A DNA stretch of 44,829 nucleotides, from sequence record NC_042084.1; one strand, 5' to 3'. This document shows positions 4,858 to 39,157 of this stretch, piece by piece. Under the pieces are notes generated by a model. The model was not told the origin of the DNA, made no database searches, and worked only from the letters and a program-made list of their open reading frames with translations. The position numbers and the translations under genes were made by a program. Positions within the stretch are counted from its first letter, which is position 1. Every line of letters starts with the position of its first letter. The stretch is from Escherichia phage VB_EcoS-Golestan.

Positions 4858-4884
4858 GACGGCCTCCTCGTTTCGATGTAATGA

Positions 4885-4913
4885 ATAGTACCCTATTATA
4901 TTGGTGTGTGCAA
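4885..4913 (-). promoter_or_regulatory. Family-1 promoter copy A (TTGCAC-N17-TACTAT) containing inverted repeat AATAG-N4-CTATT (4884-4897)
   Basis: About 35 bp near-identical to copies at 14121-14149, 37911-37939 and 39113-39141; lies just upstream of the lipoprotein cassette. Confidence 0.5.
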
Positions 4914-4979
4914 ACTATTTATTTACGTATTCCAGTTATTCCACTCAATTGTAAATGTTGGAATAAACTATTCGAATAG

Positions 4980-5008
4980 TTGACTTTTCACTAAAAATGT
5001 GCTAAGCT
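4980..5008 (+). promoter_or_regulatory. Sigma70-type promoter TTGACT-N17-TAAGCT with extended -10 TG; its -35 overlaps the perfect palindrome ACTATTCGAATAGT (4967-4980)
   Basis: Near-identical promoter at 37602-37630; both followed by the same transcribed leader. Confidence 0.6.
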
Positions 5009-5011
5009 CCA

Positions 5012-5063
5012 CCTGAGCTTGTGAAGTATGAACAAGCGACCGCGGCGCGGGCAGGTAACGGAG
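5012..5063 (+). other. Conserved promoter-proximal leader element, copy 1 (candidate cis-acting RNA, pause/antitermination site or 5' end of a small RNA)
   Basis: 38-nt block CCTGAGCTTGTGAAGTATGAACAAGCGACCGCGGCGCG identical to 37634-37671; contains hairpin GCTTGT-N9-ACAAGC. Confidence 0.5.
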
Positions 5064-5189
5064 CGGGACGTAAGGTCCTGAGTGTAGTTACGCTGACGCG
5101 TTCGGAAGGGCCATACTCTATTGCTTGTGTAAAAAGTAACGGGTTTACTGAGATTACGCCGTTTCTATGTTTAAATGATAAGGACTAGC

Positions 5190-5216
5190 GCCCCGCTTTA
5201 AGGCGGGGCTTTACTT
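5190..5216 (+). terminator. Terminator-like hairpin about 200 nt downstream of the 4980 promoter and upstream of the spanin genes
   Basis: GCCCCGC-TTTAAG-GCGGGGC followed by TTTACTTATC (imperfect U-tract). Confidence 0.4.
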
Positions 5217-5233
5217 ATCGAGAAAGGGGAAAC

Positions 5234-5620
5234 ATGAATCTTAAAGCAACTGTCGTAGCAGGAGCATGTTTCATCATCCTGGCTTACGCCCACGGCATTT
5301 ACCAGTATCGCAGCGGCTGGAGCGAAGGCCGGGCGAATCTCGTTTCGCAGCAACAGCAGAAAGCGCAGGCTGAGTTAGCGAAGAAAACACAACGGCAGCA
5401 GCAGGACGAATCAAAGGCCGCCGCCGCCGACAACGAAGGCAAGACGAAATCAGAGGTGATTACCCGTGAAGTCGTTAAATACATTAAAACGCCAGGTCGC
5501 AGCGTGTGCACTTTTGACCCTGAGCGCGTGCAGCTCAAGTCCCGCGCCGTCGCCAACGCCAATTCCATCCCCGGATACGACGATGATGCAGCCGCCGTGC
5601 AAACTGGCGCAGCCAAGTAG
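5234..5620 (+). CDS. i-spanin (Rz-like inner-membrane spanin)
   Basis: 128 aa; N-terminal TM helix, Gln/Ala-rich coiled-coil periplasmic region; o-spanin-like lipoprotein ORF overlaps in another frame. Confidence 0.55.
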   Translation: MNLKATVVAGACFIILAYAHGIYQYRSGWSEGRANLVSQQQQKAQAELAKKTQRQQQDESKAAAADNEGKTKSEVITREVVKYIKTPGRSVCTFDPERVQLKSRAVANANSIPGYDDDAAAVQTGAAK

Positions 5621-5729
5621 CGACGCTGATGAGGATTTGGCCGTCGACGTTCAGAATGCTGAATGCGTACGGCAACTGAGACTGAAAGTGTTCATGTTGC
5701 AGGATTACGTGAGGAATATTCTGGAATAG
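5466..5729 (+). CDS. o-spanin (Rz1-like outer-membrane lipoprotein), overlapping architecture, GTG start
   Basis: 87 aa; lipobox LSAC, proline-rich mature region (SPAPSPTPIPSP); begins inside and extends beyond the i-spanin ORF; RBS AGAGGTGA. Confidence 0.6.
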   Translation: MKSLNTLKRQVAACALLTLSACSSSPAPSPTPIPSPDTTMMQPPCKLAQPSSDADEDLAVDVQNAECVRQLRLKVFMLQDYVRNILE

Positions 5730-5811
5730 TTGCCTTGCATGTTGGAATAATTTATTCTTGACATGTAAATCCGGGTGGCCCGGATTCCAACGTCCAGGGG
5801 ACATACTGACT

Positions 5812-6513
5812 ATGAATCGTTTTTTACGTTATCCGTTCCAGGAAGAAGCTGGAGCAGAAGATAAAGCTGGTGGCGGTGACGCTCCTAAAATGTTCACCGC
5901 TGAAGAAGTTCAGGCGCTGATTGAGAAAGAAGTTGCCGGGCTTAAGGCCAATCAGGAAGCATTGCTGGCGGAGAAGAAAGAAGCCGCCCGTAAAGCAAAA
6001 GAGGCCGAAGAAGAACGGCAGCGTGCGCACCAGGAGGCGTTAAAGGCCGCCGGTAAGATGGACGAGTTTGAAAAGACGATTCGTAGCCAGTATGACCCGG
6101 TGTTAGCCGAGAAAGATGGCCGCATCTCCAAAATGGCAGAGCGCATCCTCGGCAGCGAACGTAAAGCGGTGCTAGGCTCTTTCGCGGGTGACTTTATTAC
6201 CCCGGAAGCAGTGGACATCCTTGCGCCGTTCGTTAAGACTGAGTTCGAAGGTGATGATGTGGTTACTAAGTTTGTCGGCGCAGACGGTAACGTAATCACG
6301 ACTGACCCGGAACAGTTCCGCAAATACCTGCGTGAACACAAAGCGTTTTCGCATTTGATTAAAGCAAATGCAGCTTCCGGCGGCGGGGCTTCCGGTGGCA
6401 AAGGCGGCGGGGCCGCACCAGCGTTTAAAGACATGAGTGAAGCAGAGCGTTTAGCCCTGTATAAATCGAACCCTGCCGAATTTGAACGGCAACTTAAAGC
6501 CCTGAGGAAATAA
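5812..6513 (+). CDS. Scaffolding protein (probable); start taken at ATG 5812 rather than ORF-track 5758
   Basis: Charged, alpha-helical, coiled-coil-like sequence with Gly-rich tail; directly upstream of the major capsid gene. Confidence 0.55.
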   Translation: MNRFLRYPFQEEAGAEDKAGGGDAPKMFTAEEVQALIEKEVAGLKANQEALLAEKKEAARKAKEAEEERQRAHQEALKAAGKMDEFEKTIRSQYDPVLAEKDGRISKMAERILGSERKAVLGSFAGDFITPEAVDILAPFVKTEFEGDDVVTKFVGADGNVITTDPEQFRKYLREHKAFSHLIKANAASGGGASGGKGGGAAPAFKDMSEAERLALYKSNPAEFERQLKALRK

Positions 6514-6515
6514 TA

Positions 6516-7565
6516 ATGGCAATTACCACTATCGGCGATATCGTAACTGGCAACATCCCGGTCCTGGCGTCTTATATGACCGAGGACCCGGTAGAAAAAA
6601 CCGCGTTCTTCCAGTCTGGTATTCTCACCCCGACCCCATACGCCGCCGAGATTGCCCGCGGCCCGTCCAACGTCGCTAATATTCCTTTCTGGAAAGCGAT
6701 TGATACCTCTATCGAGCCGAACTACTCGAACGACGTATACCAGGACATCGCCACCCCGCGTAACGTGCAGACCGGCGAGATGATGGCGCGCGTTGCGTAC
6801 CTGAACGAAGGTTTCGGTCAGGCGGATTTGACCGTTGAACTGACCAGCCAGAACCCGCTGCAATCCGTAGCGTCACGTCTGGATAACTTCTGGCAGCGTC
6901 AGGCACAACGCCGTCTGATTGCTACCGCGCTCGGGCTGTACAATGACAACGTAGCCGCTACCGACGCATACCACGAGCAGAAGGACATGGTAATCGACGT
7001 GTCTGCTACTCTGGGCTTCGATGCGGGCGCGTTCATCGACGCTACCCAGACTATGGGCGATGCTCTGATGGGCAACGGCGGTGAAGTGCTGGGGGCTATC
7101 GCGATGCATAGCTTCGTTTATGCGCAGGCACGTAAGCAGCAGCTTATCGACTTCATCCGTGACGCGGACAACAACACCATGTTCGCCACCTACCAGGGCT
7201 ACCGCGTGATTGTTGACGACAGCATGACCGTAGTCGGCACTGGCCCGACCCGTAAGTTCATCTCCATCATCTTCGGCAACGGCGCTATCGGTTACGGTGA
7301 AGGTTCTCCGTCCAACCCGCTGGAATACGAGCGCGAAGCGTCCCGCGGCAACGGCGGCGGCGTTGAAACCCTGTGGACCCGTAAGACCTGGTTGCTACAT
7401 CCGTTTGGTTACAGCTTCACCAGTGCAGTAATCACTGGCAACGGCACCGAGACTACCCCGCGCTCTGCTTCCTGGCAGGACCTGGCGAACGCCTCCAACT
7501 GGAACCGTGTGGTTGAGCGTAAGCATGTACCGATTGCCTTCCTGGTAACTGGTGTCGGTGCCTAA
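6516..7565 (+). CDS. Major capsid protein
   Basis: 349 aa; RBS AGGAAA; follows scaffold, followed by strong terminator; typical size and position. Confidence 0.75.
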   Translation: MAITTIGDIVTGNIPVLASYMTEDPVEKTAFFQSGILTPTPYAAEIARGPSNVANIPFWKAIDTSIEPNYSNDVYQDIATPRNVQTGEMMARVAYLNEGFGQADLTVELTSQNPLQSVASRLDNFWQRQAQRRLIATALGLYNDNVAATDAYHEQKDMVIDVSATLGFDAGAFIDATQTMGDALMGNGGEVLGAIAMHSFVYAQARKQQLIDFIRDADNNTMFATYQGYRVIVDDSMTVVGTGPTRKFISIIFGNGAIGYGEGSPSNPLEYEREASRGNGGGVETLWTRKTWLLHPFGYSFTSAVITGNGTETTPRSASWQDLANASNWNRVVERKHVPIAFLVTGVGA

Positions 7566-7582
7566 GGTTAAGCTATAATCGA

Positions 7583-7609
7583 GAGGGACTTCGGTCCCTC
7601 TTTTCATTT
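7583..7609 (+). terminator. Rho-independent terminator/attenuator after the major capsid gene
   Basis: GAGGGAC-TTCG-GTCCCTC hairpin followed by TTTTCATTT. Confidence 0.55.
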
Positions 7610-7626
7610 ACTAAGAGGATTCCTAA

Positions 7627-7968
7627 ATGGCAGACGTATTGAAGCGACGCATCACCGGCGTCTCCGCTGACGCCCCGGGGGCCAAGATTGACATGGAGAC
7701 TATTTCTCCTGCGTCTTTCTCTACGGCACTTAACGCTACTACTGCAGTAACCGCAGGTGAAACTATGACGCTGACAGTCGTAGTAGCTGGCGGTCTTGAG
7801 CCATATTCTTACCAGTGGTATAAGAATAACAACGCTATCGCCGGGGCAAACGCTGCTACCTACGCTAAAGCGTCAACCACTACCGCCGATTCCGGCACGT
7901 ATAAAGTGGTTGTTCACGATGTGTATGGTAATATTATCTCCAGCAGCACCGCAGCAACTGTGTCTTAA
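7627..7968 (+). CDS. Ig-like domain protein (capsid decoration candidate)
   Basis: 113 aa; motif YSYQWYKNNNAI...SGTYKVVVHDVYG typical of Ig-like/Big domains; RBS AAGAGGA; paralogous to 3858-4319. Confidence 0.55.
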   Translation: MADVLKRRITGVSADAPGAKIDMETISPASFSTALNATTAVTAGETMTLTVVVAGGLEPYSYQWYKNNNAIAGANAATYAKASTTTADSGTYKVVVHDVYGNIISSSTAATVS

Positions 7969-7972
7969 TACA

Positions 7973-7990
7973 ACGGCCCTTCGGGGCCGT
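7973..7990 (+). terminator. GC-rich stem-loop (ACGGCCC-TTCG-GGGCCGT) without clear U-tract; RNA-stabilising hairpin or weak terminator
   Basis: Read directly from sequence. Confidence 0.3.
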
Positions 7991-8004
7991 AATAAGGAAA
8001 GGTC

Positions 8005-8184
8005 ATGGCAGATAATTATGTAATCCGCGAAAAGTACACCCACGTTGATGTTGTTGACGGTCAGGTGATGCCTGTTCGCGGTGCGGTAGAAGCGGAAGAA
8101 CTGGTTGCAACACAACCGGACAACGAAGAAGCGCACAACAACGGTGGTGGTACTAAGCGACGTCGCCGTAAGTCAGAGGAATAA
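8005..8184 (+). CDS. Small hypothetical protein (59 aa) with basic C-terminus
   Basis: Hand-translated MADNYVIREKYTHVDVV...; RBS AAGGAAAGG; below the ORF-track length cutoff. Confidence 0.3.
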   Translation: MADNYVIREKYTHVDVVDGQVMPVRGAVEAEELVATQPDNEEAHNNGGGTKRRRRKSEE

Positions 8185-8187
8185 TTT

Positions 8188-8700
8188 ATGCCGCTAATCG
8201 TGGAAGATGGGTCGATAGTACCTAACGCTGACAGTTACGTTAGTCTGGCTGACGCCCGCGCGTTAGCGGCTAATTATGGCCTGGAGCTACCGGAAGACGA
8301 TACTGCCACCGAAGTAGCCTTGCGCAACGGCGCTACTTATGTCGGGCTTGCAGAACCGCAGATGTGCGGCCGCCGTGTGTCCGCCGAGCAGTCCCTGGCG
8401 TACCCACGTACGGGAACAACACTAAACGGCTTCACCGTAGCTGATAATGTTATCCCACCGCAGTTAATCCGGGCGCAGGTAATCGCCGCTGTTACGTATG
8501 GAGCGGGCACTGATGTTCGGGCTAACTCCGATGGACGTTCCGTGCAGACCGAGCGTGTAGAGGGTGCGGTAACAGTTACCTACTTCAACAACGGCAACAG
8601 CGGGGCCACAACCGCGATCACCGCCGCTGACGACGCCTTACGCCCGTTACTGTGTGGTGGTCTTAACAACGGCTTCTCATTTAATGTGTACCGGGGTTAA
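8188..8700 (+). CDS. Head-tail connector / head completion protein (position-based)
   Basis: 170 aa; tight gene packing within the capsid-to-tail connector block. Confidence 0.45.
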   Translation: MPLIVEDGSIVPNADSYVSLADARALAANYGLELPEDDTATEVALRNGATYVGLAEPQMCGRRVSAEQSLAYPRTGTTLNGFTVADNVIPPQLIRAQVIAAVTYGAGTDVRANSDGRSVQTERVEGAVTVTYFNNGNSGATTAITAADDALRPLLCGGLNNGFSFNVYRG

Positions 8701-8702
8701 AA

Positions 8703-9317
8703 ATGGCGAAGACTAAATCAGAGATGTTTACTCTTATCGGCGCAAACCTCCCCGATAACACTACCGGGCTTATTACCCCAGCAGCGTTGCGCGAGGTAAT
8801 GACACAGATGGCTGACTCACCTATTTACGCCACTCCAGGTGTTAAAGAGGTTGAAGTTCTCCGTGCCACGTCTACGGTAACCCAAGCGCCTACCGCGGTA
8901 GATACGGCATTGCAGTTAACTTTCGGTGCAGCTCAGGGTAGTGCATCCGACCCGGTAATGATTAATGCTGCGGGGCTGGTTACATTCAACACCGCCGGTA
9001 ACCACGCCGTTCGCATCAAGTTACAGGCAGGCCGCACAGGTGCCAGCGGAACGTCTATCCTGTTATCACGCATTCTTCTGAACGGTGCTCAGTACGGCTC
9101 ACCTGCCGCCACGAAACTGGTAAGCGCGGACACCACAATCCCGATTGAATCTCGCGTTGTTATTAACCCAACAGCAGGCCAGACGTTTGCCGTTCAGATT
9201 ATGCGGGATAGCGTCGGAACTAACTTCGGTGGTGTATACCCGCAAGCGGCTACCGTAACCGCATGGGGTACAGCCCCGTCCGCGTTGCTGGTTATTTCGA
9301 GACTGGAGGCCGCCTGA
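8703..9317 (+). CDS. Structural protein of the connector region (position-based)
   Basis: 204 aa; 2-nt spacing after upstream gene. Confidence 0.4.
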   Translation: MAKTKSEMFTLIGANLPDNTTGLITPAALREVMTQMADSPIYATPGVKEVEVLRATSTVTQAPTAVDTALQLTFGAAQGSASDPVMINAAGLVTFNTAGNHAVRIKLQAGRTGASGTSILLSRILLNGAQYGSPAATKLVSADTTIPIESRVVINPTAGQTFAVQIMRDSVGTNFGGVYPQAATVTAWGTAPSALLVISRLEAA

Positions 9318-9676
9318 TGAGCACCGCTTTCAGTAAACGTATGCAAGGCGTGGGTACACGCCTGCTAACCAAATTCGGCAGCACGGTATCTCTGGTTCGT
9401 GCTGGCTCGAAAGTGTGGGATGAAGTTCTCGGTGAGTACGTCTGGTCTGCGGATGAAGTGTTGCCGTTGAAAGCGGTTCCGGTTCCGGTTAATGCTGGAC
9501 TGGTAAACGGTTCGACGATTCAGGCGGCCGACATGATTGTTAAAGCCGATTACAGCGTCGTTCCGAAGATGGAAGACAAGGTTCAGTTTAGCGGCGCGCA
9601 ATGGTCTATCGTAGCTATCGAGACGAAGATGGTTAACGATGATGTCGTGGCATATTTTATTCAGGTGAGAAAATGA
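9317..9676 (+). CDS. Head-tail joining protein (position-based); start set at ATG 9317
   Basis: TGATGA stop-start overlap with upstream gene; RBS GGAGGC. Confidence 0.45.
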   Translation: MSTAFSKRMQGVGTRLLTKFGSTVSLVRAGSKVWDEVLGEYVWSADEVLPLKAVPVPVNAGLVNGSTIQAADMIVKADYSVVPKMEDKVQFSGAQWSIVAIETKMVNDDVVAYFIQVRK

Positions 9677-10068
9677 GTTTCGCGCTTGATGTCTCTAAGT
9701 TCGTGGAAAAGGCGAAGAAGAACCCTGAGAAGGTGATGCGTCAGGTGTCTATCAAGCTGTTTTCCGCTATTATAAAGGCGAGTCCGGTAGATACTGGTCG
9801 GTTTCGCATGAACTGGATGGCATCTGGCGGTACTCCTGCTTCCGGGATTACGGATGCTACGGATAAATCAGGAAACACAGCAACCGGAAACGCTACAAGT
9901 TTCGTGCTGAAAGCCACCGACTGGCATGAGTTCACGCTGACAAATAACCTGCCGTATGCACAACGGCTGGAGTATGGCTGGTCGCAACAGGCCCCGCAAG
10001 GATTCGTCAGGACTAACGTGTCCCGCTTCCAGCAACTCATTAACGAAGAAGCTAGCAAGGTGAGATGA
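9673..10068 (+). CDS. Tail completion / neck protein (position-based)
   Basis: 131 aa; ATGA overlap; within connector block. Confidence 0.45.
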   Translation: MSFALDVSKFVEKAKKNPEKVMRQVSIKLFSAIIKASPVDTGRFRMNWMASGGTPASGITDATDKSGNTATGNATSFVLKATDWHEFTLTNNLPYAQRLEYGWSQQAPQGFVRTNVSRFQQLINEEASKVR

Positions 10069-10481
10069 TGGGCTACTTTGAGGACTTAACAAAAGCGTTT
10101 GATGTGCCGCTGGTAGCCTTCGGAACCACCAACGGCATCAAGGTAGCGCTTGAAAACATCGACGCGCCGACGTCAACAGATACGCCGTATCTGGCAAGTT
10201 ACATGTTGCTGGCGGATACCGAGCAGGCTGACTTATTCTTCACGGAACAACGCGCCGGTGTCTATCAGATAGACATTAACTACACATCGGTGAAAGGTAG
10301 CGCGCCAATCAATAAAATGGCAGACTTACTTAACACGGCGTTTAAATCAGGTAAGTCATTTTCACGTAACGACATCTGCGCCGAGGTTCAATCGGTTAGC
10401 CTGGGGCCGCTGATTGTAGAAAACGGATGGGCCAAAAGACCATTGTCAATTAACTTTATTGCATTCACCAAGAGGCTGTGA
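10065..10481 (+). CDS. Tail terminator-like protein (position-based)
   Basis: 138 aa; immediately upstream of the major tail protein. Confidence 0.4.
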   Translation: MMGYFEDLTKAFDVPLVAFGTTNGIKVALENIDAPTSTDTPYLASYMLLADTEQADLFFTEQRAGVYQIDINYTSVKGSAPINKMADLLNTAFKSGKSFSRNDICAEVQSVSLGPLIVENGWAKRPLSINFIAFTKRL

Positions 10482-11650
10482 ATATGGCTACAACTCCTTT
10501 TAAGGGCGCGAATACCGCGCAATTCTATGTGGCGGAAACTACCCCGGGCGTAACACCGGCTAACCCGGTATGGTCGCCACTGCGTAACACAGGCGGCGTT
10601 CCTGCCATTACCCGTGACACGCTGACCTCCAACGAACTGGACGGCAGCCGCGAAACTACATCCATCCGCACCGGTAACAAGCAGGTTAGCGGTGAATATG
10701 CTATTGAGCTTAGCTCGAAAAGCCAGGATGACTGGCTAGCCGGGGCTTTAGGCTCTACGTGGCAGGCTGGCGTATCTCTGTCAGGGCTATCGATTACCGT
10801 CGCACCGGCTGGCAAGACGTTCACACGTGCCACCGGCAGCTTTATCACTGACAGAGTTGGGGTAGGCGACCTGATTGCGTTTACCGATTTAACTGGCGAT
10901 AATGCAAAACCATTTATTGTTACTGCAGTAACGGCTACGGTTGTTACTGGTGCAGGCATCCAACACACCCTGACCACCGAGACAAAAACTAGTAAGGCTA
11001 AAACTGGCGACACGCTGGAAACCGGTAATACGTGTAAGACGTTCTCTATCCTTACCTGGTACAAAGGCCAGTGCGGCGGTACTGACGCGTACACGTTAAC
11101 CAAAGGCGTGGAAGTTTCTGGTTTTACCATCGAACAGGCTGTTAACGCGATGGTAACTGGCAGCTTCCCATTCATCGGTCGCAGTCAGGAGATTCTCACC
11201 ACGCCGCCGACCGGTTCCAACTTCTCATCTGTTACTTTTGGTGATGAGCCGTTTTCTTCGGTTGACGTTTCCGTGTTCGATGGTTCTACGCCGTTGCGAT
11301 GCGACAGTCTGACTATCACCAACGATAACAGCGCGTCCGCGCAGTTCGAACTTGGTAACACTAACGTAGCGTTTGTTGAGCGTAGCCGCGCGGCTAACAC
11401 TTTCTCCATCTCCGGCAAGCTGTACGACATGGCGATGATTCAGAAGTTTATCAACGAACAGCAGGTAGAGATTAACTCTATTCTGGCGGGGGTAAACGGG
11501 GCTATGTCTTTCAGTTTGAAACGCGCAGAGCTTACAGCAGTAACACCAGAGATTGGCGGACCCGAGTCAATCACTCAGTCCATTGAGGGGCAGGCCACCG
11601 GCAACCAGTACCAGTCGTCTATCGTAATTCAACGTATCACCTACGCATAA
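10478..11650 (+). CDS. Major tail protein
   Basis: 390 aa; Thr/Gly/Ser-rich beta-type composition; RBS AAGAGG; followed by terminator and later by tail chaperone/tape measure. Confidence 0.6.
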   Translation: MNMATTPFKGANTAQFYVAETTPGVTPANPVWSPLRNTGGVPAITRDTLTSNELDGSRETTSIRTGNKQVSGEYAIELSSKSQDDWLAGALGSTWQAGVSLSGLSITVAPAGKTFTRATGSFITDRVGVGDLIAFTDLTGDNAKPFIVTAVTATVVTGAGIQHTLTTETKTSKAKTGDTLETGNTCKTFSILTWYKGQCGGTDAYTLTKGVEVSGFTIEQAVNAMVTGSFPFIGRSQEILTTPPTGSNFSSVTFGDEPFSSVDVSVFDGSTPLRCDSLTITNDNSASAQFELGNTNVAFVERSRAANTFSISGKLYDMAMIQKFINEQQVEINSILAGVNGAMSFSLKRAELTAVTPEIGGPESITQSIEGQATGNQYQSSIVIQRITYA

Positions 11651-14078: not shown

Positions 14079-14120
14079 AACATAACTCCTGATTTGAGAT
14101 AACATCGTCGGTGTAAGTGA

Positions 14121-14149
14121 ATAGTACGCTATTATATTGGGGTGTGCAA
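14121..14149 (-). promoter_or_regulatory. Family-1 promoter copy B (TTGCAC-N17-TACTAT) with inverted repeat AATAG-N4-CTATT (14120-14133)
   Basis: Near-identical to copies A, F and H; upstream of the accessory cassette. Confidence 0.5.
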
Positions 14150-14256
14150 GTAGTGTGCTAGAATAATTTTGCGCCTAGTGTCGCACACGAAAAGCGGGTG
14201 GTTCCCGTCTGGCGCATTTCCTTTAACCAGTAACCTCTTAACCAAAGGATTAAAGA

Positions 14257-27464: not shown

Positions 27465-27752
27465 CTAACTATAATAGTTCGCTATTAGGGCGTCAACCTG
27501 TTTAAACGAACCAACGACAAAAACATTAGCACCACGCTTACGCATCCGCTCGTGCTCCCGTAACTGGTGTGGATCCGGCTTCGTGCTTTCGTCTTTCTTT
27601 ATCTCGACGAACCAGATGACGCCGCCGGGGAGAATTACCAGCAGGTCAGGGGCGCCGGAACGTCCTTCGTAGGAAAGTTTACGAACGAGGCCACCAATGG
27701 CCTCGAATCGGTCTTTTGCGTATTTCTGTATTTTGCCCTCAGGCGTACTCAT
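27465..27752 (-). CDS. VRR-NUC domain nuclease (PD-(D/E)xK); start set at ATG 27752
   Basis: PDLLVILPGG...FVEIKK motif; RBS GAGGGG before ATG 27752; ORF-track GTG start at 27788. Confidence 0.55.
   Translation of the reverse strand: MSTPEGKIQKYAKDRFEAIGGLVRKLSYEGRSGAPDLLVILPGGVIWFVEIKKDESTKPDPHQLREHERMRKRGANVFVVGSFKQVDALIANYYS
27468..27496 (-). promoter_or_regulatory. Family-2 promoter copy C (TTGACG-N17-TATAGT) with inverted repeat AATAG-N4-CTATT in the spacer (27473-27486)
   Basis: Near-identical to copies D and E; upstream of the methyltransferase/helicase operon. Confidence 0.55.
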
Positions 27753-30522: not shown

Positions 30523-30541
30523 AGTTAAATTGATTCAGATA

Positions 30542-31171: not shown

Positions 31172-31184
31172 TTGATTTCTCGCT

Positions 31185-31202
31185 TTTCAGTTTCAGTTTC
31201 AG
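31185..31202. repeat. Tandem hexamer (TTTCAG)3 in the 5' UTR of the SSB-like gene
   Basis: Direct read: TTTCAGTTTCAGTTTCAG followed by TTTACT. Confidence 0.8.
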
Positions 31203-31235
31203 TTTACTCCGGGATCTGCCCGGCCAGTGATTAGA

Positions 31236-31264
31236 ACTATAATAGCTAACTATTCATGTGTCAA
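31236..31264 (-). promoter_or_regulatory. Family-2 promoter copy D (TTGACA-N17-TATAGT) with inverted repeat AATAG-N4-CTATT in the spacer (31241-31254)
   Basis: Consensus -35 and near-consensus -10; near-identical to copies C and E. Confidence 0.6.
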
Positions 31265-31483
31265 ATAAAATTTTGCAATAGGGATTATGTTCTCGAAATT
31301 AAGCATATTGGCCGGTTCGAACTCATCCTCTACAGGGTAGTATCGCATCATGGTACCGTTCAAGAACGTGAACGATTCCGAGTGTAGATACCCATCCCAG
31401 CGCCATACCATCAAAAAATCTTTATCAGTCGGCATTTCATTTACTTGAATCATTCTAAATCCTCCTCTGTAACTTGATTCCAC
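31250..31483 (-). CDS. Hypothetical protein
   Basis: 77 aa ORF, coupled to the upstream nuclease gene; start uncertain. Confidence 0.35.
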   Translation of the reverse strand: MESSYRGGFRMIQVNEMPTDKDFLMVWRWDGYLHSESFTFLNGTMMRYYPVEDEFEPANMLNFENIIPIAKFYLTHE

Positions 31484-33050: not shown

Positions 33051-33304
33051 TGGTCAATTAAATGTCGTGTCTGGTGCTGGCAGTGCATGGCCCAGCTATA
33101 CATCGACTCGAAGACATAAAAGTCAGGCTTGGCAAAAGTCGTGCGCTTAATCTGCGACACGTGACGGCCTATATCTTTGGGCCTGGGTACTTTGCCTAAG
33201 TACGCCATCTCTTCCATCTGGTGCGCACCGGAAGGAGCGCGCAATAGCCATAGAGCCTCCGTGTTATCCCGTCGGTCAATACCTCGGTAGAGTTGGTAAA
33301 TCAT
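33032..33304 (-). CDS. Hypothetical protein
   Basis: 90 aa. Confidence 0.4.
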   Translation of the reverse strand: MIYQLYRGIDRRDNTEALWLLRAPSGAHQMEEMAYLGKVPRPKDIGRHVSQIKRTTFAKPDFYVFESMYSWAMHCQHQTRHLIDQWENRV

Positions 33305-33346
33305 ATTACGACCCTCTGTTAAAGCGGCCCGAAGGCCGCGGGATAG

Positions 33347-33850
33347 TTATTCTTCTTCGAAATACTTGTTCTTGATTGCCGTCAGGCGTTCAAGGTACTC
33401 GGGCAGGTCTTCATCTTTAATCGCGGCAATCTTCATTTTCTTACCGGTGAACTCCTCCAGCAGTTCATCGGAATCGTCGCACGCAGCATCGCTAGGACCT
33501 TCGTTAATTGCATCGTCGATAGCCTGAATCTGGTCACGAAGAGACTGGTAATCGACCTCTTCTTTCTCTTCTTCTGGTTCTGGAGTCGGCTCCTCTACTT
33601 TAGCTTTACGCGGCTTGCGTTTCGGCTTCTCTTCTTCTTCTGCTGGTTTAGCGTCAACGATGTCTTCACCTTCAACAGGGATTTCTTTTGTTGCTTCTTT
33701 TTCGCACTCAGCTACCGCTTCTTTGGTATACACTACCGTCTCTACTTCTAACGGCGCTGCAACTTGTGCTGACTGTTTCGCACTGTTCGCAGCAATCAGT
33801 TCATGTGCAACTACGAAACGTTCCAGTAATTTTAAGAATTGTTCTAACAT
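33347..33850 (-). CDS. Highly acidic coiled-coil protein
   Basis: 167 aa; long Glu/Asp/Pro/Lys-rich stretch (EEEKPKRKPRKAKVEEPTPEPEEEKEE). Confidence 0.45.
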   Translation of the reverse strand: MLEQFLKLLERFVVAHELIAANSAKQSAQVAAPLEVETVVYTKEAVAECEKEATKEIPVEGEDIVDAKPAEEEEKPKRKPRKAKVEEPTPEPEEEKEEVDYQSLRDQIQAIDDAINEGPSDAACDDSDELLEEFTGKKMKIAAIKDEDLPEYLERLTAIKNKYFEEE

Positions 33851-33872
33851 TTGTTTCTCCTGTTTATTTAGG

Positions 33873-34100
33873 TTACTCGCCGTCGCCTTCTGTAAGGCTA
33901 TCGTCTATTAATTCAAATTTACCGTTTGAGTGTTGGATAGCTTCTTGCCCGCAATGGTCGCAAACCACCAGTTTATCGAATCCGTCAAACTCGTCCCCGA
34001 CTACGCAAGAAAGTACAAATTTATGTTTTGTACATACTTCTTGCGGTGCGCCGAAAATTGCGTGAAAACATTTAGTTATAGCTCCAGTGATTATGTTCAT
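33873..34100 (-). CDS. Small Cys-rich (zinc-ribbon-like) protein
   Basis: 75 aa; C...C...CDHC arrangement; RBS GAGAGGTGA; first gene after family-2 promoter E. Confidence 0.4.
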   Translation of the reverse strand: MNIITGAITKCFHAIFGAPQEVCTKHKFVLSCVVGDEFDGFDKLVVCDHCGQEAIQHSNGKFELIDDSLTEGDGE

Positions 34101-34128
34101 ATCTTCACCTCTCGTTTGGTATGGGTTA

Positions 34129-34157
34129 ACTATAATAGCGAACTATTCACATGTCAA
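34129..34157 (-). promoter_or_regulatory. Family-2 promoter copy E (TTGACA-N17-TATAGT) with inverted repeat AATAG-N4-CTATT (34134-34147); a second half-site ACTATTCACAT repeats at 34186-34196
   Basis: Near-identical to copies C and D; divergent from the Cro-like gene. Confidence 0.6.
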
Positions 34158-34221
34158 TGGGCTTTTCTAAAATAATTAATATGGTACTATTCACATATCA
34201 ACTAACTAAGGAGTAGCTGAC

Positions 34222-34437
34222 ATGCAACCATCTGAACTAGGCATTCGTGTAGAACAACGCCGTAAAGAACTCGGCATCTCCCAGCGCCGTCTGGCGGTCC
34301 TGACCGGCGTTTCCCAGGGCGCAATTAACCAGCTGGCTCTCGGTGTAACTCAGGACGTCCGCCCGGCAACGTTGTTTAAACTGGCGGAAGTGCTGGAAGT
34401 AGACGCTAAGTGGCTGGCGTTCGGTGAAGGGGCTTGA
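34222..34437 (+). CDS. Cro/C1-type (XRE family) helix-turn-helix transcriptional regulator
   Basis: 71 aa; ELGISQRRLAVLTGVSQGAINQL is a classic HTH; RBS AAGGAG; terminator overlaps the stop. Confidence 0.7.
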   Translation: MQPSELGIRVEQRRKELGISQRRLAVLTGVSQGAINQLALGVTQDVRPATLFKLAEVLEVDAKWLAFGEGA

Positions 34438-34454
34438 CGCCCCTTTCTTTTTAT
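34427..34454 (+). terminator. Rho-independent terminator
   Basis: AAGGGGC-TTGAC-GCCCCTT hairpin followed by TTCTTTTTATT. Confidence 0.6.
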
Positions 34455-34648
34455 TGCACCTTTATCGGGTATCTTTTGCGAAACTTACCTAACCCGCAGT
34501 ACACGCTGTAAGCCTCTGTGTAACTGAACACAACATGATACCCGCGCCCATAAGGAACTACGTTAAGAACTTCTACTACTTCGCCTCTGTGGTTGGTGTA
34601 TTTATTACCTTTCAGTTCGTCGCTTACTTCTTTAAATTTACCGCTCAT
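34451..34648 (-). CDS. Hypothetical protein
   Basis: 65 aa; ATGA coupling to the upstream primase gene. Confidence 0.4.
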   Translation of the reverse strand: MSGKFKEVSDELKGNKYTNHRGEVVEVLNVVPYGRGYHVVFSYTEAYSVYCGLGKFRKRYPIKVQ

Positions 34649-36906
34649 TCCAAATCCTCCTCTGTCACTGTCAACATTTCATTCGGTTCGTATATTGTCT
34701 TTGGAATCTTGTTATCGTTTATGCCCCACGGCAGTCGATATTGCTTAGGTATAGGCCTGTTGTTGTTATCCAGCCCAGAGACGATAACTCCCGCCTCGTG
34801 CATCTCTTCCAGTTTCTTTCGAAGGTCGTTATTAGCGTTAATTGGTACGCCGTAACTATCCTCTTTCGCGGCTTTGACGATAGCGGACATAGAAAACCCG
34901 CGCTTGTCGTCGCCCTGCTCCTGCAATTTACCCAACGCGTAAATAACCGTAGCCTCTTTGGTGTCCAGTTTCTCGAACTGACCTACCTTTTCTTTAACGG
35001 CTTCCTTCTGTTCGTCGGTCATACCTTCTACTTTCTTCACGAAGACAGAGAAGGCGTTAAAGTTAACAAAGACATCGATGTGCGGATTTCCCGCGTCAAA
35101 ATCTCGTACATCGTCACTACTATACCCTTCCGGAAGCCCCATGAAGTTGTGAGTTGGTTCTTTCTTTTCCGGTGGCTCCGCTATCTGAATCTTCTGTATT
35201 ACGAATCCTCTGGCTTTCTGCCGTTCTCCGTTTCGGTTCTTTATGTGATACAGGTTTATCTCTAAGTTATTGTCGTTGTCCGGCTTATGCAGGAACATCC
35301 CATTATCAATGGAGTTGTGAAAGTCGCTTCCACCCTTCGGCATCATGCCGTTTTCAGACGGCACAGTTTCGTCGATGTTTTTAGTCGGGTGCACCATAGC
35401 GCCGACCGCGGCGTTAAGCGTCGACGCTATTTCGTTAAGCGCCTGCGCCGCTTCTTTCATCGACCTGTTGTCGTTCTCGTCGAAGCCAGGTATGCAAGTT
35501 TGTAGGGTATCAAACGTAACCTTTACAATTTTCTCTTCACCGGCAACACGGCGCATCATTCTTACTGCCCGGCGGCGCCACACCTCATCGAGTAAGTTAC
35601 ACCCATCCGCAACACAATCGATAATGTGCAAGCGGTCAAGGTTGTCACCGAGGGCGATTTGCAAAGACTTTTTATGACGCTCGAACGACTGTGCACCTTC
35701 ACCGGCGAAAATGAACGCATGTCCTTCCGCGACCTCCGCCCCACCGAACGCATATCTTTTTTCGGAGGCAATAGCGGCGTCAATCGCCATGCTAAATGTT
35801 GACTTACCGGTGTGGGACTTTGCGCAAATGTAGAATGATTCGTTAGTCTGCATAAGGCCGTCTACGACGGAGTAAGCAGGTTCTTTTTCAACTTCCGGCT
35901 CGTCTTCGAGGTCTTCCAGCGTGCAAGTTACAGGCTCCTCGTTCTCTGTGCGATGCAGTTCTTCAACCTCTTCGTCCGGTAAATCAGGCAAAGCCGCACG
36001 AATGCTGTTAATACTGATAGGTTGCTTGTCTACGTTAAGCTCGTCCGGAAGGCCGCACATACGCAGGGCTAGATGTTGCCGGCGGTTAAGCTCGGTACAA
36101 GCGCCATTGTTTGTGTGCTGGCAGACAAAGCGCACTTCTTTACCGTCAAGCATGATGCTGGTGGAGCCTTTACCGGTGTGCAGGTGTTCGTTAGGGCAGG
36201 GCACTTCGTACCCGCGCCCGGAAGATAAAGCGTCAAGTCCAAGCTCCGCTTCGCAGAAATGCGCTATATCTGCGTTAAGCCCATGCTCATCAGCGGCAAG
36301 TGTCTTAGCTTCACGTTTACGCAACCCCATCTCTTCGGCTTTCTTGATGTACCGCTCCGCACGGATAACACGCCCTTCTGTAACCGTTATCTTCGACTCT
36401 CTATGCGGCAGGTAGATAAGGCGGTTGCCGTCTTCTGTGCAGTGGTCACGCAATGCCTCGTCTATTTCTAACTCTGCACAAATAGCCCGTTGCACCATCC
36501 ACGCATCGTTAGAGTTAAACGGCGTGCGAGCCGGAACCAGAACGCGGAAGGCGTAATCACCGTTTTTACACGCGTGCTGATGGGATGCCGTTGTGTGTAG
36601 AATATTGAAGAACGGCGCGTTCTTGAATTTGCGGGTAAGGTCGCGGTACTGAGTACGGTTGAGATGGTCGAAGTCAAACTTAACCACACTGTCTTCCAGA
36701 ATCGCGTTTTTACGGCGACCCCCAACGGGGGCGATAGCCTTCTGCTTAATCTTGGCAGCGTCGTACTCTTCCTTAGTCCATGACGGGTCTACGGACAGAC
36801 GCTTCGATGTATCGCAGACATATTCTACGAACTGCTCCAGCGGCATTTCACGCGCTACAGGGTTTTTATCGAATGTGTTGCGCAGCGTTGCAAAAACAAT
36901 ATTCAT
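34645..36906 (-). CDS. Primase/helicase-type replication protein (RepA/AAA_25-like P-loop ATPase)
   Basis: 753 aa; Walker A AKSHTGKST; Cys cluster; largest gene of the replication operon. Confidence 0.6.
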   Translation of the reverse strand: MNIVFATLRNTFDKNPVAREMPLEQFVEYVCDTSKRLSVDPSWTKEEYDAAKIKQKAIAPVGGRRKNAILEDSVVKFDFDHLNRTQYRDLTRKFKNAPFFNILHTTASHQHACKNGDYAFRVLVPARTPFNSNDAWMVQRAICAELEIDEALRDHCTEDGNRLIYLPHRESKITVTEGRVIRAERYIKKAEEMGLRKREAKTLAADEHGLNADIAHFCEAELGLDALSSGRGYEVPCPNEHLHTGKGSTSIMLDGKEVRFVCQHTNNGACTELNRRQHLALRMCGLPDELNVDKQPISINSIRAALPDLPDEEVEELHRTENEEPVTCTLEDLEDEPEVEKEPAYSVVDGLMQTNESFYICAKSHTGKSTFSMAIDAAIASEKRYAFGGAEVAEGHAFIFAGEGAQSFERHKKSLQIALGDNLDRLHIIDCVADGCNLLDEVWRRRAVRMMRRVAGEEKIVKVTFDTLQTCIPGFDENDNRSMKEAAQALNEIASTLNAAVGAMVHPTKNIDETVPSENGMMPKGGSDFHNSIDNGMFLHKPDNDNNLEINLYHIKNRNGERQKARGFVIQKIQIAEPPEKKEPTHNFMGLPEGYSSDDVRDFDAGNPHIDVFVNFNAFSVFVKKVEGMTDEQKEAVKEKVGQFEKLDTKEATVIYALGKLQEQGDDKRGFSMSAIVKAAKEDSYGVPINANNDLRKKLEEMHEAGVIVSGLDNNNRPIPKQYRLPWGINDNKIPKTIYEPNEMLTVTEEDLE

Positions 36907-37031
36907 TTCTTTTTCTCCGCACGTTCTAAGGCTTCCTGCATACGACGCATTGCGCGGTTCATCTTTACCGGTGCGAAGAAATCAGCGCCATGTTTCTGGC
37001 GGCGTAGCTGTGGAACTATTAACTTCGACAT
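36903..37031 (-). CDS. Small basic protein (42 aa) translationally coupled to the primase gene
   Basis: Hand-translated MSKLIVPQLRRQKHGADFF...; RBS AAGGA; ATGA overlap with primase start. Confidence 0.25.
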   Translation of the reverse strand: MSKLIVPQLRRQKHGADFFAPVKMNRAMRRMQEALERAEKKK

Positions 37032-37081
37032 TGTATAATCCTTGTGCTTACTTTGATGATTTGTGCTTTAGCCCCGACGTT

Positions 37082-37315
37082 CTAGCGTTGGGGTTTCTTT
37101 TGCCTACGTGCCGCATTAATCCACTCTCCTTCGCTCTGGTAGAAACTGCAATCAAGAATATCCTCTATAGAAAATTTAACTATTTTAGTGGGTCCACAAA
37201 AGTTATAAGGGAAAAGTTCTACATAACACCCATCGTCGGTTATATTTGACGCAATCTTGAAATAATATTTAATGCTGTCGTCTTCACGGAAGCTACAACC
37301 CATACGCCCAATCAT
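37082..37315 (-). CDS. Hypothetical protein
   Basis: 77 aa; ATGA coupling to the upstream HTH gene. Confidence 0.4.
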   Translation of the reverse strand: MIGRMGCSFREDDSIKYYFKIASNITDDGCYVELFPYNFCGPTKIVKFSIEDILDCSFYQSEGEWINAARRQKKPQR

Positions 37316-37500
37316 TTCACGTTCTCCTTAATCCACGCTTCAACTTTATTACGGTCAAATGTTCCTGGTAAACGGCGCCCCATAACTTTAATACAGCAGT
37401 CAGGGAATTTACCACTGCGTAACCAGTTATTAATTGTCTGACGTGTTACCCCGATACGTTCTGCTACTTCATTCTGGGTCATGTAATGTTGCATTTTCAT
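37312..37500 (-). CDS. AlpA/excisionase-like helix-turn-helix DNA-binding protein; start set at ATG 37500
   Basis: MTQNEVAERIGVTRQTINNWLRSGKFP HTH; RBS AGGAG before ATG 37500; first gene of the - strand replication operon. Confidence 0.55.
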   Translation of the reverse strand: MKMQHYMTQNEVAERIGVTRQTINNWLRSGKFPDCCIKVMGRRLPGTFDRNKVEAWIKENVK

Positions 37501-37601
37501 ATCTCCTGTTTGTTTGGTGAAAACGAGTATAGGATAGCGGGAATGTAAAAGCAACTAAAACACCACACAAAGTTACTAAGATACAAAAGATGCTACTGGT
37601 A

Positions 37602-37630
37602 TTGACTTTTACTAAAAAATATGGTAAGCT
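37602..37630 (+). promoter_or_regulatory. Sigma70-type promoter TTGACT-N17-TAAGCT with extended -10 TG (paralog of 4980-5008)
   Basis: Near-identical to the 4980 promoter; followed by the same leader. Confidence 0.6.
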
Positions 37631-37633
37631 CAG

Positions 37634-37690
37634 CCTGAGCTTGTGAAGTATGAACAAGCGACCGCGGCGCGCGGCAGGCGAAACGAGCAC
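37634..37690 (+). other. Conserved promoter-proximal leader element, copy 2
   Basis: 38 nt identical to 5012-5049, then similar but diverged sequence. Confidence 0.5.
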
Positions 37691-37799
37691 GTGTAGCGTG
37701 TGGAGTGAGGCTCGCTAGCGCGTTTGGGAGGCCCAAAGTCTATTGTAAATCCCACCTAAATATCTAAGTTACTGATTTGCCGTAGGTCAGAACCGCAAG

Positions 37800-37826
37800 C
37801 TCACTCACTCACTCACTCACTCACTC
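37800..37826. repeat. Tetranucleotide microsatellite (CTCA)6 followed by hairpin GGTGCC-TTCG-GCACC (37831-37846)
   Basis: Direct read: CTCACTCACTCACTCACTCACTCACTC. Confidence 0.9.
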
Positions 37827-37910
37827 TTGGTGCCTTCGGCACCACGTTCGTTTCGTTTCGCTCGCCATCCCATTAAACGAAAGAATCACAACGGCAACGT
37901 AACTATTCTC

Positions 37911-37939
37911 TTGCACACCCCAACATAATAGGATACTAT
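37911..37939 (+). promoter_or_regulatory. Family-1 promoter copy F (TTGCAC-N17-TACTAT) with inverted repeat AATAG-N4-CTATT (37927-37940)
   Basis: Near-identical to copies A, B and H; upstream of the small-gene block starting at 37975. Confidence 0.5.
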
Positions 37940-37974
37940 TCACTTATCGAAACGAGACAGAGGAGTGAGGGTTA

Positions 37975-38165
37975 TGTTTAAGAAGGGTCAGTTGGTTAAA
38001 ACTAAACGCGGAGGGCAATATGTATTAGTGTTGCAGGACGAGAGCGAGTATGACGAGGATAATCTGGTTGACGTATGGGGTCTGGTAAGAAAGAAAACTG
38101 GGTTCGCCTCACGCGATAATTTAGAACTCATCGGCAACAATTTTAAATTCAAAGGGGTGAAGTGA
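37975..38165 (+). CDS. Hypothetical small protein
   Basis: 66 aa; RBS GAGGAGTGAGGG. Confidence 0.5.
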
Positions 38166-38383
38166 TGATTAAGGTGGAGATTAAATCGAAAGAGACAAAA
38201 CAAACTGTAGCCAGTAAAGAATTCAACAGTGAATCCGAAATAGGTCCCTGGTTAAAACAGTACGTACATTTGCAGACGGTTTATATCATTCTGACGAAGG
38301 CAAGTGGCGTTACCGTTTTACTAGAACCGGCATCGAATAATGATGCTTGTGCCGACGACTCTGAGGGAGGTTGCCGTGGATAA
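38162..38383 (+). CDS. Hypothetical small protein
   Basis: 73 aa; ATGA coupling. Confidence 0.45.
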   Translation: MMIKVEIKSKETKQTVASKEFNSESEIGPWLKQYVHLQTVYIILTKASGVTVLLEPASNNDACADDSEGGCRG

Positions 38384-38425
38384 TATTTTAATTGTCAGCG
38401 CTGTTTATGCGGGGTGGAGGTTGAT

Positions 38426-38620
38426 ATGAGTCCATATAATGAATTCCGCTTACGCCGTCTTGTTGGTGGGCTGCGCGCCGCCGAGTTTGGCGTTGAATGT
38501 CGGGAAAAGGCGAAGTACACCCCATGGAAGTCGTGGAATTTGGCCCACGCTAAGGCGGTAGCGCAGTACCGGGAGTACAAGTTAAATAGTTTCCTAAAGC
38601 ACCACGGGGTAGAGCTATGA
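38426..38620 (+). CDS. Hypothetical small protein; start set at ATG 38426
   Basis: RBS GGAGGT 6 nt upstream of ATG 38426. Confidence 0.45.
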   Translation: MSPYNEFRLRRLVGGLRAAEFGVECREKAKYTPWKSWNLAHAKAVAQYREYKLNSFLKHHGVEL

Positions 38621-38760
38621 GAGAAGCATTCGAACGGTGGGCCGTCGTCGAGGGTCTGCCGGTTAACAAGGGTTCGAAGAAAGAGTACCTGAACATTAAG
38701 ACGCGTCTCGCGTGGCGGGCGTGGAAAGCTGGTGTGCAAACTGTGATGAATACGAGGTGA
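38617..38760 (+). CDS. Hypothetical small protein (47 aa)
   Basis: Hand-translated MREAFERWAVVEGLPVNKGSKKEYLNIKTRLAWRAWKAGVQTVMNTR; ATGA coupling. Confidence 0.3.
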   Translation: MREAFERWAVVEGLPVNKGSKKEYLNIKTRLAWRAWKAGVQTVMNTR

Positions 38761-38763
38761 GAT

Positions 38764-38952
38764 ATGAGCGAGTGGATTAAGTGTAGCGAGCGGATGCCGG
38801 AGCCTTATGAATACGTTCTTGTAACTGATGGTTTTGTCGGTTGTGAGGTTATGCGTGTTAATTCAGATGGCTACTGGGGACCAGCGAAGAGTTTATATCA
38901 CGGTGATATCTCCCACTGGATGCCCTTACCTGAGCCACCGGCGCCGGTGTAA
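38764..38952 (+). CDS. DUF551-like small phage protein
   Basis: 62 aa; N-terminal MSEWIKCSERMPE pattern recalled as typical of DUF551. Confidence 0.45.
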   Translation: MSEWIKCSERMPEPYEYVLVTDGFVGCEVMRVNSDGYWGPAKSLYHGDISHWMPLPEPPAPV

Positions 38953-38997
38953 CAGGGGGTATAACAGGTCAATAGGTTACTATTTTACTGAGTGACT

Positions 38998-39036
38998 TAC
39001 GCTGCTACACAGCAGCGTATCATTTTTCTCATTTTT
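38998..39036 (+). terminator. Rho-independent terminator
   Basis: TACGCTGCT-ACAC-AGCAGCGTA hairpin followed by TCATTTTTCTCATTTTTG. Confidence 0.55.
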
Positions 39037-39112
39037 GTTCTATTTCACCAAACGCAACAATCGAAGCGACTATTGCAGGAGATGCAACAATACAGGCACC
39101 AATAAAATTTAC

Positions 39113-39141
39113 TTGCACACTAAGATAGAATAGGCTACTAT
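39113..39141 (+). promoter_or_regulatory. Family-1 promoter copy H (TTGCAC-N17-TACTAT) with inverted repeat AATAG-N4-CTATT (39129-39142)
   Basis: Near-identical to copies A, B and F. Confidence 0.5.
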
Positions 39142-39157
39142 TCATTTACACCAACGA

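Follow-up and report, generated by a model that had tools for sequence, protein, structure and literature searches.

The genome of Escherichia phage VB_EcoS-Golestan (NC_042084.1) contains a 14 base pair (bp) inverted repeat, AATAG-N4-CTATT, and the evidence supports the view that this repeat is an operator shared by a phage regulon. The whole stretch of DNA that was analysed, 44,829 bp in length, is referred to below as the window. The view had been put forward in an initial annotation of the window, and it is supported in silico by the over-representation of the repeat, its placement at promoters in three registers, the combination of invariant arms with a free centre, and the presence of a variant element in a third phage genus. 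The candidate binder is a 71-amino acid helix-turn-helix (HTH) protein encoded in the window, a relative of the Cro protein of phage 434.

The window belongs to the genus Kagunavirus (subfamily Guernseyvirinae). It is equal in length to Escherichia phage vB_EcoS_SCS44 (ON001686.1), with an identity of 99.5-99.7% over the compared regions. The record has 78 annotated genes, and no integrase, cI-type repressor, lysogeny gene or RNA polymerase is found among them. Phages of the genera Kagunavirus, Jerseyvirus and Cornellvirus are common candidates for therapy and biocontrol and are used as chassis in synthetic biology. To our knowledge, nothing is known about the control of transcription in Guernseyvirinae. 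For comparison with the window, complete Kagunavirus, Jerseyvirus, Cornellvirus and Dhillonvirus genomes were used together with about 50 distinct IMG/VR contigs.

All eight exact matches reported by the initial annotation are present at the positions that it gave. The comparison with shuffled controls, which it had proposed as a check, bears out the excess: 100 dinucleotide-preserving shuffles gave a mean of 0.02 copies and a maximum of 1. When one mismatch is allowed, the number of matches is 13, against 1.13 expected. When all inverted repeats with arms of five nucleotides and gaps of 0-8 bp are ranked by their frequency in the genome, AATAG with a 4-bp gap comes first; the next commonest has four copies and is a GC-rich terminator stem. 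The copies had been described as always intergenic, which is mostly correct, but does not hold for 27473-27486, located in the final codons of the open reading frame (ORF) of a VRR-NUC protein, or for 31241-31254, which overlaps the end of ORF 31250-31453.

Ten copies are associated with promoters, seven of them exact and three with one mismatch, and all have sigma70-type hexamers with a 17-bp spacer. The hexamers were recognised as matches to the consensus (the promoters are, therefore, predicted ones), the positions of the repeat assume that the -10 hexamer lies at -12 to -7, and each copy was oriented by the gene downstream of it. In register A, the repeat follows TTGCAC-N10, contains the -10 hexamer TACTAT, and extends from -19 to -6 with its centre at -12.5 (4884, 14120, 37927 and 39129). 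In register B, it follows TTGAC(A/G)-N4 and lies in the spacer from -25 to -12, centred at -18.5, with the -10 hexamer TATAGT starting at its last T (27473, 31241 and 34134). In register C, which is represented by one-mismatch copies (4975 and 42117), the -35 hexamer TTGACT lies within the centre and right arm of the repeat, which extends from -40 to -27 and is centred at -33.5. The promoter-associated copies, and one exact copy outside them, are as follows.

4884-4897, minus strand: exact putative operator, register A; -35 TTGCAC at 4908-4913, -10 TACTAT at 4885-4890; upstream of the small genes 4857-4415.
4975-4988, plus strand: one-mismatch copy AATAGTTGACTTTT, register C; -35 TTGACT at 4980-4985, -10 TAAGCT at 5003-5008; drives a non-coding unit.
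14120-14133, minus strand: exact putative operator, register A; -35 at 14144-14149, -10 at 14121-14126; operon of a superinfection-immunity protein, a phosphoesterase and a polynucleotide kinase.
27473-27486, minus strand: exact putative operator, register B; -35 TTGACG at 27491-27496, -10 TATAGT at 27468-27473; methyltransferase/helicase operon.
31241-31254, minus strand: exact putative operator, register B; -35 TTGACA at 31259-31264, -10 TATAGT at 31236-31241; DUF2815/DNA polymerase operon.
34134-34147, minus strand: exact putative operator, register B; -35 TTGACA at 34152-34157, -10 TATAGT at 34129-34134; operon 34100-31250, divergent from the Cro-like gene.
34178-34191, plus strand: one-mismatch copy AATATGGTACTATT; promoter of the Cro-like gene itself, where the repeat overlaps the extended -10 TGgTACTAT (34182-34190).
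37927-37940, plus strand: exact putative operator, register A; -35 TTGCAC at 37911-37916, -10 TACTAT at 37934-37939; small-gene operon 37974-38952.
38971-38984, strand not assigned: exact orphan copy without a promoter, between the stop of gene 38764-38952 and a terminator at 38998-39019.
39129-39142, plus strand: exact putative operator, register A; -35 TTGCAC at 39113-39118, -10 TACTAT at 39136-39141; operon from 39173 towards the lysis genes.
42117-42130, plus strand: one-mismatch copy ACTAGTTGACTATT, register C; -35 TTGACT at 42122-42127, -10 TATATT at 42145-42150; operon from 42184 to the small terminase subunit.

The hexamer positions confirm that there are two promoter families that carry the repeat at different registers, as the initial annotation had noticed, and a third register can now be added. 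Since the registers differ, the repeat forms a module of its own, apart from the -35 and -10 hexamers. The earlier description of the copy at 38971-38984 as lacking a promoter and preceding a terminator is also correct. Two further palindromes next to TTGAC elements had been regarded as related to the repeat. One of them, ACTATTCGAATAGT, does not stand as a separate element: it is made up of the left arm of the 4975 copy, which forms its right half, and the adjoining CTATT. The other, GAATAATTTATTC, is distinct from the AATAG repeat. No copy of the repeat was seen at a possible promoter of the primase operon (TTGCTT-N17-TATACT, approximately 37526-37554, minus strand; a consensus match), at the promoter of a second non-coding unit (approximately 37602), or at the putative promoters of the capsid and tail operons.

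The pattern of conservation points to selection on the arms of the repeat. The Kagunavirus and Jerseyvirus genomes have 3-8 exact copies each, at the same promoters and in the same registers. At 27473, the arms are intact in 45 of 48 sequences including the window, although ten different centres occur; the entropy per column is 0.04 in the arms, 1.01 in the centre and 0.42 in the flanks. At 34134, where 40 sequences including the window were aligned, 39 have intact arms and there are seven centres (entropy per column 0.02, 0.62 and 0.22 for arms, centre and flanks, respectively). The arms of the 37927 copy are intact in all 19 orthologous sequences. With the arms under strong sequence selection, the centre free, and the whole element able to slide relative to the -35 and -10 hexamers, the repeat bears the signature of a recognition site for a symmetric dimer, as judged from sequence, and not that expected of a contact with polymerase or of a structure formed by the nucleic acid.

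The one-mismatch copies are also maintained. The 34178 copy is identical, mismatch included, in 39 of 40 sequences (the window and 39 relatives), and the equivalent position in the Jerseyvirus SE2 reads TTGCGT-N10-ATTACTGTACTATT. The 42117 copy is conserved with its mismatch in 40 orthologous sequences; in the SE2 orthologue, AATAGTTGACTAGT, the mismatch is in the opposite arm. The 4975 copy was recovered in three relatives (L002, L003 and L043), the only ones that cover the region. The orphan copy at 38971 is intact in only 7 of 26 sequences (the window and 25 relatives), its right arm being degenerate in most, and is probably dispensable or decaying. Promoter sites of Jerseyvirus consistently carry an extra flanking T/A pair, TAATAG...CTATTA. 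A register-A-like site of Salmonella phage SE2 (12336-12349) has a mirror double change, AGTAGAGTACTACT (AGTAG-N4-CTACT), which also removes the last T of the -10 hexamer; this site may be a decaying promoter.

The distribution of the element across genera bears on the identity of its binder. The initial annotation had proposed two kinds of HTH protein, Cro-like (HTH_3) and AlpA-like, of which the former is favoured and the latter disfavoured by the comparison. Across 441 phage records, the AlpA-like protein is confined to Kagunavirus and Jerseyvirus, while the Cro-like protein also occurs in Cornellvirus (41-43% identity) and is, thus, present in all three genera that have the element. The exact repeat does not occur in seven Cornellvirus-type loci from five different phages. 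However, on reading the orthologous promoters, and only in this way, a variant was found there. The pattern A[AT]TA[GCT]-N4-[CGA]TA[AT]T occurs in 8 copies in the complete genome of VSiP and in 10 copies in that of St162, whereas 1.2 would be expected and no shuffle gave more than 4. All eight VSiP copies lie in promoter regions orthologous to those of the window, where they cover the -35, lie in the spacer, or cover or closely follow the -10, and most of the St162 copies are orthologues of VSiP copies. The dominant half-sites are ATTAG and ATTAC in place of AATAG. These two complete Cornellvirus-type genomes lack the AlpA-like gene and still have the variant element. The Dhillonvirus PNS1, which has a replication module in common with the window, has neither regulator, and the variant element is absent from it (0 copies against 0.9 expected). 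Given that Cornellvirus has the Cro-like gene and the element without the AlpA-like gene, and PNS1 has neither, the element tracks the Cro-like gene.

Another palindrome that might serve Cornellvirus was looked for by exact and one-mismatch genome-wide counts, and none was found; CGCTA-N4-TAGCG occurs three times in coding sequence and looks like chance. PNS1 has a different palindrome, GGGACAG-N5-CTGTCCC, in four copies genome-wide.

Of the small non-structural proteins common to the three genera, none but the Cro-like protein has a recognisable sequence-specific DNA-binding fold. Two other genes, 39779-39982 and 42184-42432, have a conservation that mirrors the operator pattern; their products look secreted or membrane-bound and acidic, respectively, and are unlikely to bind DNA. 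In the window itself, only two proteins have clear sequence-specific DNA-binding domains, the 71-amino acid HTH_3 protein and a 62-amino acid HTH_17 protein (the AlpA-like protein), to which a weak NinH match at 43675-43911 can be added.

34222-34437, plus strand: Cro-like gene, encoding a 71-amino acid HTH_3 (Cro/C1-type) protein (Pfam HTH_3, 2.3e-12, above the curated cut-off).
37312-37500, minus strand: AlpA-like gene, encoding a 62-amino acid HTH_17 protein (Pfam HTH_17, 1.9e-8); first gene of the primase operon, with a promoter that lacks the repeat.

By sequence and by structural model, the 71-amino acid protein is a full-length homologue of phage 434 Cro, which also has 71 amino acids. 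In a phmmer search of the PDB, 434 Cro is its best match with a solved structure (E 2e-6, residues 6-68 against 4-64). A single-sequence AlphaFold model has five helices and a predicted local distance difference test (pLDDT) score of 81.5, and its top PDB match in Foldseek is again 434 Cro (2cro, template modelling scores 0.73/0.79). A homologue with 44% identity is encoded at the cro position of the lambdoid Klebsiella phage GZ7, next to 14-bp operators of the form ACAA-N6-TTGT (ACAAACAAGTTTGT and ACAAATAACCTTGT). The family is thus known to read repeats of 14 bp whose outer arms are conserved and whose centre is free, and the repeat of the window has exactly this geometry. The 434-Cro-like protein is, on balance, the probable binder of the 14-bp repeat, a candidacy in which we have reasonable rather than high confidence. 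Its gene is transcribed divergently from the 34134 promoter, and the 34178 copy is a candidate autoregulatory operator; the conservation of a weaker copy at this position fits autoregulation.

The recognition helix agrees in part with what is known of 434, where the first glutamine recognises the adenine in position 1 of the operator and the second recognises positions 2-3. In the protein of the window and its relatives, the first glutamine is kept, and so is the A at position 1 of the operator. G or S stands in place of the second glutamine, and the operator has AT, not CA, at positions 2-3.

Several observations weigh against the Cro-like protein as the binder and against the regulon built on it. 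The Cro-like proteins of Kagunavirus and Jerseyvirus are only about 50% identical, yet the two genera have the AATAG half-site in common. Their helices are GVSQGAINQL and GVSQSLITHL, respectively, and QGAINQ and QSLITH differ at four positions that match base-contacting residues of 434 Cro. Conversely, the Cornellvirus helix GVTQSAISHL (QSAISH) is closer to that of Jerseyvirus, yet the half-sites of these two genera differ. As likeness of helix and likeness of half-site disagree, a simple helix-to-half-site code fails. A word-indexed search for distant Cro-like relatives returned only proteins with at least 78% identity, and it gave no data on co-variation, because the six most divergent full-length matches examined keep the recognition helix. 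The Cornellvirus pattern was defined after four VSiP sites had been viewed; the other four VSiP sites and the copies in St162 came to light when it was applied. Finally, the one published RNA sequencing study of a Kagunavirus, phage K1B4, with coarse timing, places the Cro-like gene in the middle class and the AlpA-like gene among early genes, by a mapping inferred from gene order (PMC12645636).

That last assignment would suit the AlpA-like protein as the binder of the repeat, and so would its distribution, since it is found exactly in the two genera with the exact motif and is missing from the two complete Cornellvirus-type genomes that have no exact copy. It is also 82% identical between Kagunavirus and Jerseyvirus, matching their identical half-sites. 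We nevertheless consider this reading unlikely, because Cornellvirus promoters keep a related 14-bp element in the same registers without the AlpA-like gene. In the Kagunavirus LM02P1, moreover, the AlpA-like protein is only 66% identical and its helix TRQTINNW has become SPMTLNRW, although all eight repeats are unchanged. Direct repeats, as opposed to 14-bp palindromes, are the typical targets of small HTH_17 or excisionase-type proteins such as BldC, Xis and TorI, and no significant homologue of the AlpA-like protein with a solved structure was found. The repeat might instead be bound by another phage protein of unrecognised fold or by a recruited host transcription factor. Most small early proteins have no recognisable domain, and the mismatch between divergence of the recognition helix and identity of the half-site leaves room for another binder; we give this explanation a modest minority share of the probability. 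A host factor is argued against by the fact that the half-site does not follow the host: Jerseyvirus and Cornellvirus both infect Salmonella and have different half-sites, while Kagunavirus (E. coli) and Jerseyvirus (Salmonella) have one half-site. We know of no E. coli factor with an AATAG-N4-CTATT site, and the OxyR site, ATAG-N7-CTAT, has a different spacing. As for other phage proteins, the small ones common to the three genera, apart from the Cro-like protein, are those that look secreted or membrane-bound and acidic, and a NinH-like protein.

Two further explanations were considered. The motif has been published as a phage-specific promoter, that is, one recognised by an RNA polymerase of the phage or by a polymerase that the phage has modified. 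Seven 'phage RNAP promoters', with the consensus tgAATAGTa-ccTATTat-T, are listed in the fBC-Eco01 paper (PMC9825357), the Golestan paper gives seven promoters predicted by PHIRE (PMC7203180), and PHIRE 'promoters' of Kagunavirus genomes, for example TGAATAGTACCCTATTATAT, are the same sequence (PMC9825357 supplement). With no RNA polymerase gene annotated in the window and no fixed register, the phage-polymerase reading fails, and we regard it as very improbable. The copies sit among good sigma70 hexamers, and a motif found in three registers relative to these hexamers cannot itself define the start of transcription; it is, furthermore, a perfect palindrome with an unconstrained centre. It is about equally hard to credit that the repeat works through its folding, whether as a cruciform or hairpin in DNA or as a stem-loop in RNA. 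A single strand is able to fold into a stem of 5 bp and a 4-nucleotide loop, and the symmetric double change of the one SE2 copy would be compatible with pairing. However, the stems are weak (-1.5 to -2.5 kcal/mol), the arm sequence is the same in all promoter-associated copies without co-variation, and the copies in registers A, B and C are upstream of the inferred start and, therefore, outside the transcript. No Rfam family covers the repeat. A site for a MerR-type spacer-binding activator was also considered and ruled out, as the spacers are all 17 bp and not 19-20 bp.

If the Cro-like protein is the regulator, the circuit may work as follows. Each of about ten sigma70-type promoters would hold one operator of a phage-encoded dimeric HTH regulator, most probably the 434-Cro-like protein, and the bound dimer would act by steric repression, since in registers A, B and C the repeat lies inside the footprint of RNA polymerase. 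None of the centres (-12.5, -18.5 and -33.5) falls where activators sit, for example at -41.5 or -61.5. The promoters, being near-consensus, should fire unaided. As the Cro-like protein accumulates, units with perfect operators would be turned down first: the small-gene operons (4884, 37927 and 39129), the operon of the superinfection-immunity protein, phosphoesterase and polynucleotide kinase (14120), and the replication and recombination operons (27473, 31241 and 34134). At higher concentration, the gene's own promoter and the register-C promoters (4975 and 42117), which have one-mismatch operators, would respond later. That the hexamers are real promoters, that the Cro-like protein is the binder, that binding represses, and that shut-off follows this order are all points that we infer.

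It is tempting to speculate further that a virulent subfamily has retained one half of an immunity switch of the lambdoid kind, namely a Cro of the 434 type but no cI, and has spread single operators over nearly all its host-type promoters. The small protein would then be a genome-wide timer, with register and operator quality setting the order of shut-off, and operator and protein would have co-diverged in Cornellvirus. We hold this wider reading only tentatively, as less likely than not. If it is true, the circuit might also shut off the early promoters of a sibling phage that superinfects the cell. Should the narrower explanation, with the Cro-like protein as the regulator, be correct, the half-sites AATAG, T-AATAG and ATTAG, together with three recognition helices, would form a natural series for the evolution of 434-type specificity. 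The window would gain a promoter map of ten promoters with coordinates and one candidate master regulator, whose defined site of 14 bp could serve to tune or rewire these genomes. A recurring mis-annotation of the motif as 'phage RNA-polymerase promoters' would also be corrected. The practical value lies in annotating and engineering Guernseyvirinae.

Several other elements were noticed in the window. A non-coding unit of approximately 150-200 nucleotides is present twice, within 4975-5215 and 37597-37850, both on the plus strand. Both copies have a strong sigma70-like promoter (TTGACTTTT...TAAGCT) in front and a terminator-like hairpin at the end; their first 85 nucleotides or so are nearly identical, the remainder has diverged, and the overall identity is 78%. 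No Rfam family matches this duplicated unit, which is a candidate phage small RNA. The sole gathering-level Rfam match in the window, unrelated to the repeat, is an int-alpA RNA (RF02996) at 14168-14232 on the plus strand (36.6 bits, the gathering score being 35.8). This match falls within the leader of the tail-assembly operon, a short way downstream from an extended -10, TGCTAGAAT (approximately 14155-14163), and the leader sequence is recognisable in the Cornellvirus VSiP.

The palindrome GAATAATTTATTC at 5745-5757, which also occurs at 4961-4973, adjoins a TTGACA (5758-5763) that has no good -10. Its centre at approximately -42 is where class II activators typically bind; the palindrome precedes the scaffold/capsid operon, and the block TGGAATAATTTATTCTTGACA is identical in Cornellvirus (L041, approximately 7728-7745). 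This palindrome may be an activator site of a late promoter. A leader motif, A(T/C)C(G/A)AAACGAG followed by a ribosome-binding site, is found 10-30 nucleotides downstream of the -10 in both promoter classes (for example, 4860-4875, 34103-34120, 37946-37960 and 39150-39160) and is conserved in relatives and in Jerseyvirus. Two tandem repeats were also seen: CACTCA, approximately four times, at 37800-37826 in the large intergenic region, and GTTTCA, three times, at 31190-31207 in the leader of the DUF2815 gene.

Among known systems, antitermination by the AlpA protein of Pseudomonas aeruginosa or by lambdoid Q resembles register B in that the site lies between the -35 and -10 and terminators are located downstream in the operons. 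P. aeruginosa AlpA contacts DNA through residues 128-142, acts as a monomer on an asymmetric element of 6 bp and depends on a pause site that resembles a -10 (PMC9371919). Judging from the location of these contacts, it is more than twice as long as the phage AlpA-like protein, which has 62 amino acids and consists of HTH_17 only. The site described here is, in contrast, a symmetric one of the dimer type that shifts by 6 and 21 bp between promoters. A loading site for a Q or AlpA antiterminator is, therefore, ruled out by the symmetry of the repeat, its three registers and the different protein architecture. The C proteins of restriction-modification systems come closer. They are small dimers of the XRE family, with C.AhdI and C.BclI as close structural matches, and bind palindromes (C-boxes) that overlap promoters in a concentration-dependent autoregulation. 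However, they control one or two promoters of their own operon, which they activate and then repress, whereas here about ten promoters are concerned and no site suggests activation.

The closest likeness is to Cro and cI of phage 434 (and also to c2 and Cro of P22); family, fold and the length of 71 amino acids are common to 434 Cro and the protein of the window. The 434 operator, ACAA-N6-TTGT, is likewise an inverted repeat of 14 bp in which the outer arms are conserved and the central 4 bp are free to vary. In both systems, the operators overlap core elements of promoters, and the regulator's own promoter holds a weaker site. The differences are that the half-site here is AATAG instead of ACAA(G), that the helix has G or S where 434 has its second glutamine, and that the window is without a cI partner, a tripartite OR/OL region, an integrase or a lysogeny module; the intergenic region next to the Cro-like gene has two sites, not three. 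Instead, the genome of a virulent phage has about ten promoters with a single operator each, and these operators occupy three registers. No paper was found that notes the inverted repeat, its registers or a link to the Cro-like protein for the published motif. Without cI, the tripartite operator and a lysogeny module, the 434-Cro homologue of the window would work like 434 Cro, but not as part of an immunity switch. The proposed regulatory circuit is well supported, if of a conventional kind, and is built on a motif whose sequence has already been published.

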